Below, in pieces: positions 3,227 to 22,900 of a DNA stretch of 54,562 nucleotides (position 1 is the stretch's first letter; each line of letters opens with the position of its first letter). The position numbers and the translations under genes were made by a program. This DNA comes from an uncultured Gemmatimonadaceae bacterium (GTDB lineage: Bacteria; Gemmatimonadota; Gemmatimonadetes; Gemmatimonadales; Gemmatimonadaceae), in contig CAYMQV010000003.1 in the NCBI GenBank assembly GCA_964392395.1, positions 1 through 54,562 of the forward strand, written 5' to 3'. The notes under the pieces were generated by a model. That model was given only the letters and a program-made list of their open reading frames with translations. It made no database searches and was not told the origin of the DNA.

Positions 3227-3495
3227 GAGACCTGGCAGTGTGTGAGTGAATGAACGGGGCAGTCGTGGCAAAGAAACACAACGAGGGCACTGAAGTGCCG
3301 TCAGATGCGCCCGCACGAGAATCTCTCTGCGCTGTCGCCATGACAGTAGTACGGGATGCGTGTGCCGTGCAGTAGTCGGCGATGACGCAAATCCGTATGG
3401 TTGTGGCACCCGCCGCTGGCGTACGCGCAGACTGATGGCGACGTTTCTCGCGTTCGCCCTGTCACCACCTCGCCTCCGTCCTGCCCGGTGTCCAC

Positions 3496-4737
3496 ATGTC
3501 GGTCTCTCGTCGTAGCCTGGCACATCGCGTTGCCCTCGTCGTCGTCGCGACGACCCTCAGCACCCACGCACTCCTGGCGCAATCCAAGCCGCGCGAAAAC
3601 GACCTCAAGCTCCCTATCGGGGGTACGCCTGGCCGGCTCGATGCGATCACCGACGTGGCCGGTGTCGAGGTCGGCCACAGCACTATCATCTCGGGTAGTG
3701 GTCCGCTGGTGGTCGGCAAGGGCCCGGTTCGCACCGGTGTCACCATCGTGCACCCGCGTGGCAAGGACAATGCGGATCCGGTGTTCGCGTCGTGGTTCAC
3801 GCTCAACGGCAACGGCGAGATGACCGGCACCACCTGGATTCAGGAGAGCGGCTATCTCGAAGGCCCCATCGGCATCACGAACACGCACAGCGTCGGCGTC
3901 GTGCGCGATGCGATTATCCGATGGGAAGTGGGGCGCAAGAACGTGCTGCAGCCCTGGTGGCTGCCGGTGGTGGCCGAGACGTACGACGGCGGCCTGAACG
4001 ACATCAATGGTTTTCACGTGAAGACTGAACATGTCTTCGCAGCCCTCGACAGCGCGCGTGGCGGTCCGGTGCCTGAGGGCGTCGTCGGCGGCGGCACCGG
4101 AATGCGCTGCCTTGGTTTCAAGGGCGGCATCGGGACGGCGTCGCGTGTCCTGACGACGACGAAGGGAGACTACACCGTCGGTGTACTGGTGCAGTGCAAC
4201 TTCGGATCGCGCGCCGACCTGCGCATCGCCGGCGCGCCGGTGGGCGAGGAGATCACCGATCTATCGCCCTGCATCGCGAACGATCGCCCGTTGCCTCAGG
4301 AAGTGGGCTTGGTTCGCCGCTGCAGCGCGCCCGCGCGGCCCGGTGATGCCGACGCGGCCGAGCAGGGATCGATCATCGTCGTGGTCGCGACCGATGCACC
4401 GCTGATGCCGCACCAGCTCAAGCGTCTGGCAACACGCGTGTCACTCGGTATCGGCCGACAGGGTGGATTCGGCGGCAATGGCTCGGGCGACATTTTCGTC
4501 GCGTTCAGCACCGCGAATCCGAAGACATGGAGCAGTGACACCGTGTCCACGGTGCGCCTGATGTCGAACGACGCGATCTCGCCGCTGTTCAAGGCCACGG
4601 CGCAGGCTACCGAAGCGGCGATCACGAATGCCATGCTGGCGGCCGAAACGACGACGGGTGCGAATGATCTCCGGATTCATGCGTTGCCGGTGGATCGGAT
4701 GCTGGCGGCGTTGCGGAAGTATGGGCGGATGCCGTAG
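3496..4737 (+). CDS. P1/S58-family aminopeptidase (DmpA/BapA-like)
   Basis: Signal-like N-terminus. DAITDVAGVEVGH, GVTIVHP, LNGNGEMTGT and GITNTHSVG are typical of DmpA-type Ntn peptidases. Confidence 0.85.
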   Translation: MSVSRRSLAHRVALVVVATTLSTHALLAQSKPRENDLKLPIGGTPGRLDAITDVAGVEVGHSTIISGSGPLVVGKGPVRTGVTIVHPRGKDNADPVFASWFTLNGNGEMTGTTWIQESGYLEGPIGITNTHSVGVVRDAIIRWEVGRKNVLQPWWLPVVAETYDGGLNDINGFHVKTEHVFAALDSARGGPVPEGVVGGGTGMRCLGFKGGIGTASRVLTTTKGDYTVGVLVQCNFGSRADLRIAGAPVGEEITDLSPCIANDRPLPQEVGLVRRCSAPARPGDADAAEQGSIIVVVATDAPLMPHQLKRLATRVSLGIGRQGGFGGNGSGDIFVAFSTANPKTWSSDTVSTVRLMSNDAISPLFKATAQATEAAITNAMLAAETTTGANDLRIHALPVDRMLAALRKYGRMP

Positions 4738-13410: not shown

Positions 13411-13575
13411 ACCGTTCAAAATCGCTGACCCCATGAAGGACCGAGCCCATGAACGGTTCAAAGTCTCTGACCCCATGAACGACCGACCCCATGAACGACC
13501 CCATGAACGGTTGACCCCATGAACGGTTTAAAGTCTCTGACCCCATGAAGGACGATCCCATGAAGGACCCATGAA
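13411..13575 (+). repeat. array of nine CCCATGAA cores (extended GACCCCATGAASGAC) with a nested ~70-bp duplication
   Basis: Cores start at 13430, 13446, 13472, 13488, 13500, 13516, 13542, 13557 and 13568. A longer unit ACNGTTYAAARTCKCTGACCCCATGAASGAC occurs 3 times (from 13411, 13453 and 13523). Confidence 0.9.
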
Positions 13576-13584
13576 GACCCCGGG

Positions 13585-18081: not shown

Positions 18082-18268
18082 AACCAACTGCTTGACACAG
18101 AGGCGCAGAGGCGCAGAGGCACAGAGAACAACAAGATCGGAGGGGTTTTGAACCAAGCAGTTTCCATCAAGTTCGTTTCTCTGCGTCTCTGCGCCTCTGT
18201 GTCTCTGTGTGAAGCTGTTAGTTCGCTGGTTCGTTCGCTGGTTCGTTCGCTGGTCAGTTCGCTGTCGC
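18082..18268. repeat. composite hairpin element, copy 1: imperfect long inverted repeat plus 12-bp x4 tandem array
   Basis: The left arm is 18082-18128 (AACCAACTGCTTGA + CACAGAGGCGCAGAGGCGCAGAGGCACAGAGAA). A 48-nt loop follows. The right arm is 18177-18223 (TTCTCTGCGTCTCTGCGCCTCTGTGTCTCTGTGTG + AAGCTGTTAGTT). Then GTTCGCTGGTTC repeats 4 times (18221-18268, last two units degenerate). The element lies just 3' of the GxxExxY gene. Confidence 0.85.
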
Positions 18269-18364
18269 GAATACTTCGCAGTTCCATGTGGTGTGCAGTT
18301 GCTGCTAGTGTCATCAAGACGCGGTGCTCTTGCCACGCGCGCTGGTCGCTGCGTTTCACTCACA

Positions 18365-18808
18365 CTACGACTCCGCTTCGATTCGGGACGTCAGTATGAT
18401 GGTCCGTCGTTGCAAGGGTTCCTGGTCGTTACTGATGCGGCGGAGGCCCGCCTTCAAGGTTGGTGCACCGAAGTTGATCAGCAGGCCGACGGGCAAGTCC
18501 AACAGGCGGAGATAGGTCAACACCTGCTGCGCGGAGACAGGATCGAGTCTCGCGACGGACTTCACGTCGACCACGACACTGTCCTCGACGAGCAGATCGA
18601 GACGGAACCCGCGGCCGAAGTCAACGCCGTCGTATTCGAGCGATACTCGAACCTGTCGTCGCACTCGAAAGCCGCGACGACGCAACAGCATCATCAGCAG
18701 CCGTTCGTAGATGACCTCGAGGAGACCAGGCCCGACCTCGCGGTGGATAGTGAGCGCGGAATCCACGATCGCTCCCGTAATGCGCAGAAGTTCCTGACGA
18801 TCCCGCAT
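18365..18808 (-). CDS. GxxExxY protein (PD-(D/E)XK-like small protein family)
   Basis: It contains the eponymous GLLEVIY motif and RLDLLVEDSVVVDVKS...LLINFG, typical of the TIGRFAMs GxxExxY family. Confidence 0.85.
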   Translation of the reverse strand: MRDRQELLRITGAIVDSALTIHREVGPGLLEVIYERLLMMLLRRRGFRVRRQVRVSLEYDGVDFGRGFRLDLLVEDSVVVDVKSVARLDPVSAQQVLTYLRLLDLPVGLLINFGAPTLKAGLRRISNDQEPLQRRTIILTSRIEAES

Positions 18809-18978
18809 TCCCCCTCCCCCGGTTGGAGAGAATACACATGAGCAATCAGGCCAACGGCAGCGTTGCGCCTCCGCACCACCCCCGTTGACCTGTCAGCCAT
18901 CATGCGAACACAGGACGCCTCAGGCAAACCAAAAACACTCGCAATCATCATTTTCGCGCACGCGATGTACCTTCGGGG

Positions 18979-20484
18979 ATGCCCACCCAGACGACGCCCG
19001 AGCCCGGACTCGCACTCCAGATGCGAGGGATTAGGAAGGCGTTCCCCGGTGTGCAGGCGCTGGCCGGAGTGGACCTGGATGTCCGCCGAGGCGAGGTGCA
19101 TGTGCTCCTCGGCGAAAACGGCGCGGGAAAGTCCACGCTGATGAAGATTCTCAGCGGTGCGCTGCCACGCGATGCGGGGACGATCGAGATCGACGGACGC
19201 GCGGCGGCGTTGGCCAGTCCCCGCGAGGCACGCGGCGCGCGGATTGCGATCATCCATCAGGAACTGGCGCTGGTCCCCGAAATGACGGTGGCCGAAAACA
19301 TCTTCCTCGGCCGGGCGCCGACGCGATTCGGCTTCCTCGATCAGCCGGCGATGGTCCGCGACGCCACCACGTTCCTGTCGCGACTGGGAGCGAACATCGA
19401 TCCGAACCTGCTCGTCGCATCGCTCAGCATCGCGCAACAGCAGTTGGTGGAGATCGCGCGGGCGCTCTCGCTCGACGCGCGTATTCTGATCATGGACGAA
19501 CCCACGTCGGCCCTGACGGAACGCGAATCAGCGCGCCTCTTCGCGACGATCAGTGGTCTCACGGCGCGGGGTACGGCGATTGTCTACATCTCGCATCGTC
19601 TCGACGAAATCTTTGCGATCGGAGACTGGATCACCGTGCTGCGTGATGGGCGCAACGTGGCGACGCAGGAGGTGCGGCAGGCCGACCGGCGCGCGCTGGT
19701 GCGGTTGATGGCCAATCGCGACGTCGATGAGCTCATGCCGCCAATGGAACGCACGACCGGAACGCCACGATTGCGCGTCGAAGGGCTGTCACATGGCAAC
19801 AGGCTGCACGACGTCAGCTTCAATGTGCGTTCAGGTGAGATCGTGGGATTCGCAGGTCTGCTCGGCGCCGGCCGAACCGAGATCGCGCGCGCGGTGTTCG
19901 GGCTCGAGCCATTTGATCATGGTACGGTGTACGTCGACGAGCTGCCGGTCGATATCCGCTCTCCTCAGGATGCCATCGCGGCCGGCATCGGGTTCGTGAC
20001 CGAAGATCGCAAGCGTGAAGGGCTGGTGCTCAGCCGCTCCGTGCGCGACAATGTGGCGCTGCCGATTCTCAGACGTCTGGCGCGGCTCGGGATCGTGCAT
20101 CGAAAGGCGGAGACGGCGATCGCCCAGTCATCAGTGCGTGATCTCGGTATTCGCACGCCGTCGGTCAGCCAGCTGGCGCAGAACCTGAGCGGCGGCAATC
20201 AGCAGAAGATCGTGCTGGCCAAATGGCTCGCGACTGGGGCGCGCATCCTCTTTCTCGATGAACCGACACGCGGCATCGATGTCGGTTCCAAGCAGGAGAT
20301 CTACGCGCTGATCAACGAATTGGCGGCTTCCGGTGTCGCGATCGTGCTGATGTCTTCGGACTTGCCAGAGGTACTCGGCCTGTCGGACCGCGTGCTCGTC
20401 ATGCGCGAGGGGCGGATCACGGGGGAGTTCACCCGCGCCGAGGCCAGCGCTGAACGGGTGATGGCCTGCGCGGTGGGCATCTGA
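18979..20484 (+). CDS. sugar ABC transporter ATP-binding protein (RbsA-like, duplicated ABC domains)
   Basis: Two Walker A / signature sets are present (GENGAGKST; LSGGNQQK). Confidence 0.9.
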   Translation: MPTQTTPEPGLALQMRGIRKAFPGVQALAGVDLDVRRGEVHVLLGENGAGKSTLMKILSGALPRDAGTIEIDGRAAALASPREARGARIAIIHQELALVPEMTVAENIFLGRAPTRFGFLDQPAMVRDATTFLSRLGANIDPNLLVASLSIAQQQLVEIARALSLDARILIMDEPTSALTERESARLFATISGLTARGTAIVYISHRLDEIFAIGDWITVLRDGRNVATQEVRQADRRALVRLMANRDVDELMPPMERTTGTPRLRVEGLSHGNRLHDVSFNVRSGEIVGFAGLLGAGRTEIARAVFGLEPFDHGTVYVDELPVDIRSPQDAIAAGIGFVTEDRKREGLVLSRSVRDNVALPILRRLARLGIVHRKAETAIAQSSVRDLGIRTPSVSQLAQNLSGGNQQKIVLAKWLATGARILFLDEPTRGIDVGSKQEIYALINELAASGVAIVLMSSDLPEVLGLSDRVLVMREGRITGEFTRAEASAERVMACAVGI

Positions 20485-20488
20485 ACGC

Positions 20489-21454
20489 ATGATTTCATCG
20501 TCCACACTGCGCCGGATCGTCAGGGGCCGGGAGTCGGGCACCACGTTTGGCCTGCTCGTGCTCTGCGTCGGACTCTGGATTGCCACGCCGTACTTCGCGA
20601 CGGCAGCCAACCTCTCCAATGTGGCCGAACAGAGCGCAGTCATTGGCGTGATTGCGATCGGCATGACCTTCGTGATTCTCACCGGCGGAATTGATTTGTC
20701 GGTCGGATCGCTGGTAGCGCTGGTGAGCGTGGTGATTGGCTCCGCGTTGCAGCGCGGCGTACCAGTATTCGCTGCGGTCGCCATTGGGCTGCTGGCCGGT
20801 GTTGTGTCTGGTGCGCTGAACGGCCTGATGATCACACGAGGTCCGCTGCCGCCGTTCATTGCCACGCTCGGCATGATGAGTGTCGCGCGCGGTGCGGCCC
20901 TGCTGCTGTCGGACGGCCGGCCGATCTCGGGCTTTCCGGATGGATTACGGGCGTTGGCGACGGGTGAGGTATTTGGTGTGCCGGCGCCGGTGGTGATGAT
21001 GCTCACGCTCTATCTGCTCGCGTATCTGGTGCTCACGCGGACTGTATTCGGGCGATACATGTATGCCATCGGTGGCAACGAAGAAGCGACGGTGCTGGCC
21101 GGCGTGAATGTCCGGCGCTGGAAGACGGTGGTGTACGCCATCAGTGGCCTCTCGGCCGGTGTCTGCGCCGTGTTGCTGGTGGCACGACTCAACTCTGCCC
21201 AACCGATCGCCGGCATCGGCTATGAGCTGGATGCGATCGCCGCGGTCGTGATCGGTGGCACGAGCCTGCTCGGCGGGTCTGGCTCAGTGATCGGCACACT
21301 GATCGGTGCCCTGATCATGAGCGTGCTGCGCAATGGGCTCAACCTGCTGGGCGTCTCGTCGTATCTTCAGCAGGTGGCGATCGGCGTCGTGATCATCGCC
21401 GCGGTCCTGATCGACATGGCACTCCGCCGACGGGTTCAACGCTCTTCCCGATAG
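20489..21454 (+). CDS. sugar ABC transporter permease (RbsC-like)
   Basis: Polytopic membrane protein of the ribose/xylose-type permease family (ITGGIDLSVGS motif), 4 nt after the ATPase gene. Confidence 0.9.
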   Translation: MISSSTLRRIVRGRESGTTFGLLVLCVGLWIATPYFATAANLSNVAEQSAVIGVIAIGMTFVILTGGIDLSVGSLVALVSVVIGSALQRGVPVFAAVAIGLLAGVVSGALNGLMITRGPLPPFIATLGMMSVARGAALLLSDGRPISGFPDGLRALATGEVFGVPAPVVMMLTLYLLAYLVLTRTVFGRYMYAIGGNEEATVLAGVNVRRWKTVVYAISGLSAGVCAVLLVARLNSAQPIAGIGYELDAIAAVVIGGTSLLGGSGSVIGTLIGALIMSVLRNGLNLLGVSSYLQQVAIGVVIIAAVLIDMALRRRVQRSSR

Positions 21455-21459
21455 ATCGC

Positions 21460-22392
21460 ATGCGCGCAACACTGTCCGTCCGTCGATTTCTGGTGCTGAC
21501 TTCCGCGCTGCTCATTGCCGGCTGCAACCGCGGCCCCGACGCCACCGCGAGGCCCACGGTCGCCCTGGTGGTGAAGACGCTCAACAATCAGTTCTTCGTC
21601 GACATGGAGGCGGGGGCGAAAGCTGCGGCCGACAGTCTCGGACTCGAACTCATCGTACAGGCGCCGGAGCGGGAGATCGATGTCGAGCGACAGATGCAGA
21701 TCATCGAGAACCTGATTCAGCGCAAGGTGAGGGTGCTGATGCTGGTGCCCAACGGGTCGAAGGAGATCGTACCGGCGGTGGTGAAGGCGAATGTGGCCAG
21801 GATTCCTGTGGTGGTGGTTGATTCACGGGTGGATGACGGCACGCTGAAGGCGGCGGGAGGGACCGTCGCGACGTTCATCGGCTCGGACAACGAAGATGGC
21901 GGGCGAATGGCCGGCGCCTATCTCATCGAGCGACTTGGGCGCACAGCGAGGGTCGCGATACTCGAAGGTGTGCCAGGCCACGAAACCGCCGACGCACGGC
22001 TGCGCGGATTTCGCAAGGCGCTAGCCGGATCACCGGCGATGCAGATCGTGGCGTCGCAGCCGGCGAACATGGAGCGCGATCAGGCGTTCAACGTCACACA
22101 GAACATTCTGCAGGCGCATCCCGACATCACGGCGCTGTTTGCCTGTAATGATGTGATGGCGCTGGGTGCACTGGAGGCGATCGCCGCGGCGGGGAAGGGT
22201 ACCGCCATCAGTGTGGTTGGCTTTGACGCGCAGGATGATGCGCGGAAAGCGATAACGGAGAGACGCATGGCGGCGACCATCGCGCAGAATCCGCGCGAGA
22301 TGGGGCGACTGGCCGTGCTCACGGCGCATCGGCTGATCCATGGCGAGTCCGTTCCCGCAGAGCAGCCGGTTGCGATCAGTCTGATTCGGTGA
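21460..22392 (+). CDS. periplasmic sugar-binding lipoprotein (RbsB-like)
   Basis: Lipobox LLIAGC. VALVVKTLNNQFFVDMEAGAK and IPVVVVDSRV are typical of ribose-type binding proteins. Confidence 0.9.
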   Translation: MRATLSVRRFLVLTSALLIAGCNRGPDATARPTVALVVKTLNNQFFVDMEAGAKAAADSLGLELIVQAPEREIDVERQMQIIENLIQRKVRVLMLVPNGSKEIVPAVVKANVARIPVVVVDSRVDDGTLKAAGGTVATFIGSDNEDGGRMAGAYLIERLGRTARVAILEGVPGHETADARLRGFRKALAGSPAMQIVASQPANMERDQAFNVTQNILQAHPDITALFACNDVMALGALEAIAAAGKGTAISVVGFDAQDDARKAITERRMAATIAQNPREMGRLAVLTAHRLIHGESVPAEQPVAISLIR

Positions 22393-22460
22393 CACATGGT
22401 CAGCAGTCGCTCTGCTGACACTGGTTGGAGAACAGGATCGCGCCGCGACGAGTAGCCACA

Positions 22461-22900
22461 CTCATCGCAAAGTGAGAATCAAACAGCATCACAAAGCGAT
22501 GAGTAAACGTCGCGCTTGGCGGAGTGAGAAACCAACAGCGTCAGACAGCGATGAGTAATGATGCGCTTGGCGAAGTGAGAAACTAACAGCGTCAGACAGA
22601 GGCGCAGAGGCGCAGAGATGCAGATGTGAGCAGCTGAGTCGAGTGTGGAAGCGACTGTTTTTGTGGGTGTCTGGTCGAGATTCGTAACTGAAGCGCCCGT
22701 CGTTGCATATGAAAGGTCTGTTTCCAACGCCGTTGCTGTTGCTGTTACCAAATAGTTCTGCCCGACCGCTGTAGAAGTCGTCCCCCTCTGTGTCTCTGTG
22801 TCTCTGCGTGAAGCTGTTAGTTGGCGTTGCCCTTGCCGTTGCTCTTGCCCTTGCCGTTGCTCTTGCCCTTGCCGTTGCTGTTGCTGTTGCTGTTGCTGTC
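22461..22900. repeat. composite hairpin element, copy 2: ~51-bp x3 tandem, long inverted repeat with ~167-nt loop, 18-bp x4 tandem array
   Basis: Tandem units run about 22461-22613, with period 51-52 bp (AGTGAGAA at 22471, 22523 and 22574). The left arm is 22581-22617 (AACTAACAGCGTCAGACAGAGGCGCAGAGGCGCAGAG). The right arm is 22785-22822 (CCTCTGTGTCTCTGTGTCTCTGCGTGAAGCTGTTAGTT). 18-bp units occupy 22829-22900 (GCCCTTGCCGTTGCTCTT x2, then two variants). It has the same orientation as copy 1. Confidence 0.85.

Follow-up and report, generated by a model that had tools for sequence, protein, structure and literature searches.

Gene-less copies of a genome-wide foldback repeat family on either side of a GxxExxY gene and rbs-like genes in an uncultured Gemmatimonadaceae bacterium

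Structure of the two hairpins

The window analyzed here is the whole stretch of 54,562 nucleotides (nt) at C3:1-54562 of the genome assembly of an uncultured Gemmatimonadaceae bacterium (GCA_964392395.1), and it contains two long hairpins of the same build, copy 1 and copy 2, that lie on either side of a GxxExxY gene and three rbs-like genes. The GxxExxY (PDDEXK_3) gene, located at 18365..18808 on the minus strand, encodes a protein of 147 amino acids that matches TIGR04256 with 124 bits against a cut-off of 35, and it is followed by the rbsA/C/B-like genes at 18979-22392; this gene content between the copies agrees with a preliminary description of the locus. Copies 1 and 2 have the same polarity, are about 4.5 kb apart, and are gene-less members of a genome-wide family of about 60-75 foldback repeats.

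Read along the plus strand, each copy has an outer arm followed by three to four phased units of 8 nt (CAGAGRYR); past the loop come the mirror arm, a 15-mer, and a short tandem array. In copy 1, the purine-rich left arm (18082..18128) carries the outer arm AACCAACTGCTTGACA and then about four phased units, CAGAGGCG/CAGAGGCA, evident as a tandem period of 8 at 18098-18126, as an inverted repeat, and in the predicted fold; the pyrimidine-rich right arm (18177..18223) terminates in the 15-mer GTGAAGCTGTTAGTT, common to both copies. These arms, 47 nt each and 85% complementary, enclose a noncoding loop of 48 nt (18129..18176) that holds a small inner stem and is without similarity to GxxExxY genes, and a 12-nt tandem array consisting of four units of GTTAGTTCGCTG (18217..18264) abuts the element on the right. 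The arms of copy 2 form an inverted repeat of 37 nt each with 81% complementarity: the left arm (22581..22617) is composed of the outer arm AACTAACAGCGTCAGA followed by CAGAGGCG units, the right arm (22786..22822) terminates in the same 15-mer, and the two enclose a noncoding loop of 168 nt (22618..22785) unrelated to that of copy 1. A 6/18-nt tandem array (TTGCCC/TTGCCG/TTGCTG; 22821..22899) abuts copy 2 on the right, and on the other side its left outer arm, together with adjacent sequence, is present as a tandem triplication with 2.5 copies of a 51-nt unit (22470..22599).

The arms of both copies are runs of the 8-nt unit CAGAGGCG and its transition variants, three to four units at period 8 with the junctions TTGACA/TCAGA and TGTGAA/CGTGAA. 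The left arms have the 22-mer ACAGAGGCGCAGAGGCGCAGAG in common and the right arms the 17-mer CCTCTGTGTCTCTGTGT. The shared 15-mer starts at 18209 and 22808 and, with up to three mismatches allowed, gives 6 matches versus 0.43 expected, and the arm core CAGAGGCGCAGAG, with up to two mismatches, occurs 12 times in the window versus 3.0 expected, a count that 0 of 100 shuffles reached. Both strands of both hairpins fold far better than shuffled sequences (z between -5 and -10), with energies of -86.7 kcal/mol for the plus strand (z -10.0) and -77 kcal/mol for the minus strand (z -8.6) of copy 1, and -105 kcal/mol for copy 2 (z -5.3). Inverted repeats, common strings, and folds thus agree that both long hairpins, with the same plus-strand architecture, are real. 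The outline given in the preliminary description stands, including the short tandem array beside each copy and the 48-nt loop of copy 1, with a few corrections: the loop of copy 2 measures 168 nt rather than about 167, the identical left-arm string is 22 nt long rather than 21, and transitions do prevail among the mismatches between the arms of copy 1 (five, versus two transversions) but do not make up almost all of them.

A genome-wide repeat family

A scan of the whole assembly for arms with at least three phased C-A-R-A-G units returned 108 arms, versus 15 in reversed or complemented controls. These arms form 77 loci, 59 of which are of the CAAAG flavor, 17 of the CAGAG flavor, and one mixed. 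Sixteen of these loci are no more than 400 nt away from a contig end, a zone that makes up 7% of the sequence, which indicates that the repeats break the assembly and that the true number of loci is probably higher. There are 29 clean arm pairs with loops of 41-169 nt, plus one with a loop of 463 nt, and all clean pairs have the outer arm AACWGCNTNAC-R. In general form, a family member consists of a short tandem array, this outer arm, three to seven 8-nt units in phase (C-R-C-R-R-A-G-N), and, across a loop of 40-170 nt, the mirror arm; in the full-length form a GxxExxY gene fills the loop. In most members the array has a period of 6-7 nt, (GGCAAC)n / (GTTGCY)n and relatives, and since it stands on one side only, the element has a polarity.

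The loop of copy 2 (C3_22597_22806) is homologous to those of 10 members elsewhere in the genome, and the resulting subfamily of 11 loops, in which most members have CAAAG arms, has a consensus structure with plausible inner stems and weak covariation (covariation term of +1.12, slightly unfavorable). Copies of the family sit in intergenic spacers, 20-200 nt past stop codons, and 10 of 23 lie between convergent genes versus 21% expected (P = 0.012). The genome has two GxxExxY genes, 42% identical, which are associated with different flavors of the repeat: the window gene adjoins the CAGAG-type hairpin of copy 1, and its paralogue on contig C298 (3543-3931) lies inside a CAAAG-type hairpin, with the left arm at 3457-3503 and the right arm at 3965-4010. 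The dispersed structured element postulated in the preliminary description is therefore borne out by 77 loci in this assembly and by populations in most species of the genus; further copies and an association with GxxExxY genes elsewhere were both found, and the element exists both with GxxExxY cargo, as on C298, and without it, as in the window.

An inverted-repeat scan with strict seeds missed most copies because of the transitions in their arms and mostly returned palindromes at contig starts. These are perfect over 39-55 nt (C254:1-118, C352:1-129, C106:1-158, C272:1-98, and C4:1-81) and are most likely assembly or library artifacts. Past the end of the window, a CAAAG-type arm is found at C3:65548-65576, 25 nt from the contig end, and the contig probably breaks inside another family copy. 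Two arms 1.2 kb apart on contig C332 were considered as a candidate cargo element and rejected, as they belong to two distinct hairpins that flank an ordinary gene.

The assembly also contains a second, unrelated repeat family, characterized by AAGGACTCTGACCCCATGATCG, to which an array in the window at 13414-13580, dense in GACCCCATGAAC, belongs. The only gene for a Y1 transposase (PF01797, 46 bits), of the IS200 type or that of the REP-associated tyrosine transposases (RAYT; REP, repetitive extragenic palindrome), lies at C110:497-832 on the minus strand and is flanked on both sides by inverted AAGGACTCTGACCCCATGATCG. The 10-mer GACCCCATGA has 41 exact matches genome-wide versus 2 in the control. 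Populations of REP sequences or of REPINs together with a RAYT gene have been termed REPtrons (PMC3116915, PMC3733652, PMC8266576), and the C110 gene with its AAGGACTCTGACCCCATGATCG repeats looks like a classical one.

The GxxExxY gene and its protein

Several properties of the window GxxExxY protein suggest that it is a nuclease of the PD-(D/E)XK fold (PF13366). The PD-(D/E)XK residues D71, D81, and K83 are intact, and in an alignment of homologues D71, D/E81, and K83 are invariant and the G-x-x-E-x-x-Y helix is kept. A fold search with the AlphaFold model (mean predicted local distance difference test score of 83) gave weak matches, all of them to PD-(D/E)XK nucleases, namely, Cas4 SSO0001, the AdnAB nuclease domain, and lambda exonuclease (best E of 0.04), and no solved structure related by sequence was found in the PDB at E ≤ 1. 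The family is large, with more than 7,800 relatives among the matches listed in one search. Many homologues of the window protein, from different phyla, end in the conserved tail PSASPRLRVNQ (SASPRLRVN), which reads as a translation of the right, pyrimidine-rich arm (TCTCCGCGTCTCCGCGTGAAC), suggesting that gene callers extend the open reading frame (ORF) into the repeat.

The window gene has no significant bracketing arms of its own (locus L016, z -0.6). Upstream of its start, at 18861-18899, stands GCGTTGCGCCTCCGCACCACCCCCGTTGACCTGTCAGCC, at the position where the orthologues in G017 and G014, two other genomes of the genus, have the pyrimidine arm; this stretch looks like a decayed arm that has lost significant complementarity to the 3' side of the gene. 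A link between the hairpins and four-helix-bundle genes, which had also been considered, found no basis, as the genome has no match to TIGR02436.

Association of gene and repeat

The pairing of GxxExxY genes with repeats of this build extends across the genus, the phylum, and other phyla. Inverted arms of this build bracket about 25 of the 31 GxxExxY loci in the genus and, at z ≥ 6, 62 of the 71 loci sampled in more than 10 phyla, among them Verrucomicrobiota, Planctomycetota, Chloroflexota, Sphingomonas isolates, Nostoc linckia, Geobacter, and Bacteroidota. A period of 8 was found in 47 of these 62 bracketed loci and a T.RC-R-C.RRG junction in 42, and typical arms across phyla read TCAC-GCGGAGAC-GCGGAGAC-GCGGAG or have CAAAG, CAGAG, or CGAAG equivalents. 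At gene-bearing loci the arms adjoin the ends of the coding sequence or run into them, which leaves no room for a promoter.

Among 151 Gemmatimonadota genomes, 55 contain a GxxExxY gene, and these include all 14 genomes (13 genera) with at least eight arm hits, versus 0 arm-rich genomes among the 96 that lack the gene (hypergeometric P = 2.2e-7, kinship ignored). For the seven genomes with a large surplus of gene-less arms (for instance, 132 hits with one gene), the corresponding value, again ignoring kinship, is P = 6.6e-4. Within the genus, arm hits were found in 19 of 20 genomes, with six or more in 18 of them, and each genome has its own unit flavor; numbers range from 0 to about 155 among species, and G001, the only genome of the genus without a GxxExxY gene, has no arms. 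Arm populations were likewise found in carriers from other phyla, with 66 hits in a Nostoc genome and 76 in a complete metagenomic chromosome. Gene-less populations thus occur only in genomes with the gene, in the Gemmatimonadota and in the genus set, and both the gene-repeat partnership and the assignment of the window copies to the family are well supported.

As a separate observation, the genome G012 has six arm hits over about 500 nt (G012:C26:11367-11871), the four central ones about 106 nt apart, and this tandem hairpin cluster is reminiscent of the clustering of bacterial interspersed mosaic elements (BIMEs).

History and turnover of sites

At least eight species of the genus have a syntenic GxxExxY gene immediately upstream of rbsA. 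It is bracketed in G017, G014, and G003, and in the source genome (G000), G019, and G005 a complete short hairpin stands just 3' of the gene with no significant bracket. In G004, the closest relative of the source genome (RbsA 94% identical), the locus upstream of rbsA (L050, on G004:C5) holds a decayed GxxExxY pseudogene with an internal deletion, as well as an inserted ORF of about 140 amino acids on the other strand and a different family hairpin. The spacer that contains copy 2, between rbsB and an aldo-keto reductase gene, is equally variable: it is empty (95 nt) in G019, where the copy-1-type hairpin is present, it carries only the right half of the element in G004, and it carries different family hairpins in G017 and G006. 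Given these site-by-site differences, copies 1 and 2 have separate histories, and the earlier proposal that they bracket the GxxExxY gene and the rbs operon as a unit does not hold, since relatives carry one site without the other.

We compared the joined flanks of 16 elements of the source genome with three relatives, G004, G019, and G005. The site C31:22969 is cleanly empty in G005, and C89:12680 is empty in both G019 and G005; C277 appears empty in G005 and C262 in G019, and at C313 G005 is without a full element, having a poorly aligning spacer that may hold a degenerate one. All three relatives appear to be occupied at C14 and C64, as do G019 and G005 at C44 (where G004 is without a match), and C43 is occupied in G004 and G005. 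Three inserts of G004 were aligned, and each is a family hairpin; half-elements occur in G004 (at the copy 2 site) and in G019. The alignments of filled against empty sites show sharp borders. At C31:22969, inspected by eye, the flanks of the source genome and G004 are near-identical, the units of both arms change from CAAAG to CAGAG, and the loops align poorly; such a switch of flavor within steady flanks indicates that the repeats change faster than their flanks and in a concerted way. Family copies are thus inherited vertically in close species and gained, lost, or half-deleted in more distant ones.

Ten public contigs carry exactly the GxxExxY protein of the window, and one of them is 99.9% identical over 11.5 kb. 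In these near-identical strains, which are otherwise 99.9-100% identical, the sole length variation is in the 12-nt array beside copy 1 (18217-18264): it has 3, 4, or 9 units, and five public contigs break off within it. Three contigs of near-identical strains reach the copy-2 spacer, one of which crosses it fully, and over the covered part they have no deletion or duplication, so that the suggested loss or doubling of the operon between direct copies is not seen where these contigs reach. Each hairpin marks an old insertion that is for the most part static; neither marks a mobile rbs operon.

Discussion

The distribution of gene and repeat brings to mind bacterial systems in which a small nuclease or transposase is paired with dispersed palindromes, and we give roughly even chances to the reading that copies 1 and 2 are gene-less partner repeats of a PD-(D/E)XK nuclease, working as REPINs do with RAYTs or NTS repeats with SsnA. 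The process could comprise several steps: (i) the GxxExxY nuclease would recognize phased units next to a T-N-R-C junction, with a hairpin, a cruciform, or single-stranded DNA as the probable substrate; (ii) cutting at the arms, followed by copying or repair from other copies, would slowly spread the repeats; and (iii) the same cutting and repair would maintain similarity between the arms of each copy and among the copies of one genome. At the locus described here, the window gene would be an old resident next to rbsA with a decayed bracket, copy 1 a separate short element beside it, and copy 2 an insertion past rbsB of independent origin. Should the stable stem-loops affect rbs or GxxExxY transcripts, this would be a side effect.

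A number of observations weigh against this reading. G004 has an insert of element size at every assessable site, about 11, and with the two genomes occupied alike, any spread must be slow; in near-identical strains both hairpins are unchanged, which means that no movement is visible on that time scale either. No target-site duplication could be read at C31:22969 and C89:12680, where the flanks are 73-86% identical to those of the empty-site genomes and the exact borders are uncertain, and no common target could be read at the empty sites. By tblastn and blastn, the loops of gene-less copies resemble neither of the two GxxExxY genes nor the flanks of these genes, and the gene-less copies are thus not simple deletion derivatives of gene-bearing ones. 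The link between the gene and arm-rich genomes is partly circular, notably for genomes with few hits, because arms that bracket a gene enter the count; within the genus, the numbers of genes and arms are not correlated (rho of -0.07), and G018 has two genes and one arm hit. Finally, the assembly is a fragmented metagenome-assembled genome of 459 contigs.

Some of the features described above could also be read at the level of RNA. The stems are very stable as RNA on both strands, the copies lie a short distance past stop codons and are enriched between convergent genes, and the arms of gene-bearing loci leave no room for a promoter; 23S rRNA intervening sequences provide a precedent for genes in stems cut by RNase III. 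The arms would then be transcript structures (RNase III-type sites or 3'-end stabilizers), the promoterless GxxExxY cassette would be expressed by read-through, the gene-less copies would stabilize or insulate mRNA 3' ends as REP sequences and BIMEs do, and the nuclease would not act on the repeats. We consider this explanation unlikely. Wobble-compatible arm mismatches at gene-bearing loci have no strand bias, with 47 sense G:U versus 51 antisense, besides 68 transversions, and the lack of an mRNA-strand bias fits a constraint at the DNA level better than one at the RNA level. A T-run or terminator-like site is present at neither hairpin, the tails reading GTTCGCTGG... and GGCGTTGCC..., so that the canonical terminator role once suggested for the hairpins can be dropped. 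Rfam 15 gave no match at the gathering score, and the sub-threshold matches, to eukaryotic miRNA precursors with 24-36 bits versus cut-offs of 70-84, are spurious. The slightly unfavorable covariation term of the loop subfamily also speaks against this explanation, which accounts neither for the conservation of phased units across phyla nor for the fact that gene-less copies never occur without the gene. Overall, the evidence leans toward a constraint at the DNA level, with an effect on transcripts possible too.

Other explanations keep the action at the DNA level but assign different parts to the nuclease and the repeats. GxxExxY proteins could be useful to the host in the manner of Ssn, as sequence- and structure-specific nucleases that act on incoming or single-stranded DNA (for instance, in transformation, repair, or defense), with the repeats kept as their recognition sites and spread by ordinary recombination and not through the nuclease; the same logic applies to the GIY-YIG nucleases of the Ssn/NTS system (PMC11893778), for which the statistics are similar, and the rbsA-adjacent gene has long been inherited vertically. 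With arm hits ranging from 0 to about 155 between species of a single genus and the gene decayed in G004, the picture is closer to that of a dispensable passenger than to that of a function maintained for the host, and we find this possibility improbable. Still less probable in our view is a homing scenario, in which the hairpins would form a repeat family of their own, with the GxxExxY gene, like a homing endonuclease, invading their loops and depending on the hairpin: the gene does lie precisely in the loop and gene-less loops bear no trace of it, but gene-less hairpin populations are never seen without the gene (0 of 96 genomes), and gene-bearing arms have one architecture across phyla where an independent host repeat should vary by lineage. 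Mobilization of an ordinary REP/REPIN by the RAYT (Y1 HUH transposase) of the genome itself would account for the REPIN-like shape, two inverted modules with a spacer in intergenic DNA, and a PF01797 gene is indeed present in the assembly; it is, however, flanked by the different repeat AAGGACTCTGACCCCATGATCG, its contig C110 has no arm with 8-nt units, and the junctions of the present family read GACG, AACG, GACA, or CACA instead of a conserved GTAG or CGTC tag, so that this origin has hardly any probability left. The same applies to a local duplication, or to a composite unit whose direct copies bracket the GxxExxY-rbs segment and delete or duplicate it, ideas suggested by the common polarity, the spacing of 4.5 kb, and the identical strings of 22, 17, and 15 nt. 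These are contradicted already by the independent histories of the two sites and by the genome-wide family, with about 75 further loci elsewhere; the two loops are unrelated and relatives of the copy 2 loop occur on other contigs, sister species carry one site without the other, the three strain contigs at the copy-2 spacer (one crossing it) are unchanged where they cover it, and an identity of at most 22 nt is short for homologous recombination.

GxxExxY/PDDEXK_3 proteins are a large family of small bacterial proteins without known function, and their link to hairpins suggests a testable one, that of a nuclease specific for the sequence or structure of its own repeat. If this is true, the family would be a source of many nucleases diversified in nature, each with its recognition unit, as was the case for Ssn. 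In addition, hairpin repeats of this kind explain a share of contig breaks, spurious ORFs, and odd SASPRLRVN tails. No published account of an association between GxxExxY genes and hairpins was found in the literature on GxxExxY, PDDEXK_3, intervening-sequence proteins, or the arm sequences, nor did we find the pairing of nuclease and repeat across many phyla in print.

Among known elements, the intervening sequences of 23S rRNA that contain an ORF, such as those of Leptospira and Coxiella with their S23p/four-helix-bundle proteins, resemble the present system in that a small gene of unknown function, from a multicopy family, lies in the loop of a long stem. The elements described here differ in that they occupy spacers between protein-coding genes and not rRNA helices, and in that the genome has no TIGR02436 gene. 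With miniature inverted-repeat transposable elements (MITEs) and other foldback elements derived from insertion sequences they have in common terminal inverted arms, gene-less copies that far outnumber gene-bearing ones, and filled and empty sites; unlike MITEs, they come without a transposase, no target-site duplication could be read at the compared sites, and their loops are not deletion derivatives. We rejected an assignment to MITEs on the grounds that the interior is not derived from a transposase (the loops have no similarity to the GxxExxY genes or their flanks) and that the partner is not a known transposase.

The likeness to the REPIN/RAYT system is closer. In both cases one or a few small genes of the nuclease type are flanked by inverted repeat copies, tens to hundreds of gene-less intergenic hairpins are mostly inherited vertically, the repeat sequence is lineage specific, and genomes that lack the gene have no repeat populations. 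The partner here is, in contrast, predicted to have the PD-(D/E)XK fold (PF13366) and not that of a Y1 HUH enzyme, and the arms consist of three to seven phased 8-nt units without a GTAG/CGTC tag, with the gene filling one hairpin loop. The 5' end of a REP palindrome carries a conserved GTAG or CGTC tetranucleotide (PMC3733652); with this tag missing and the C110 transposase having AAGGACTCTGACCCCATGATCG as its own repeat, membership in REP/REPIN-RAYT was rejected.

In the Ssn/NTS system, 42% of the nuclease homologues are repeat flanked on both sides and 81% of the repeat-rich genomes carry the gene (PMC11893778). Here, too, a small nuclease gene is framed by a dispersed hairpin repeat, repeat-rich genomes have the gene, and the relationship holds across phyla. 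The two systems differ in the nuclease fold, which is PD-(D/E)XK here (as predicted) versus GIY-YIG, and in the repeats: those of NTS are short single hairpins, and the present foldbacks are long, with units in phase and loops of large size. Cleavage was demonstrated for Ssn (PMC11893778) and is inferred for GxxExxY proteins. The partner belongs to PF13366/TIGR04256, with fold matches to PD-(D/E)XK enzymes and not to the GIY-YIG Ssn nucleases, for which reason membership in Ssn/NTS was rejected. A broader and more tentative proposal, possible but at present somewhat doubtful, is that PF13366 proteins across bacteria are the enzymatic partners of phased-unit foldback repeats, each lineage recognizing its own unit flavor, cutting the arms, and driving slow copying and homogenization, in which case they would constitute a third nuclease-repeat system beside RAYT/REPIN and Ssn/NTS.

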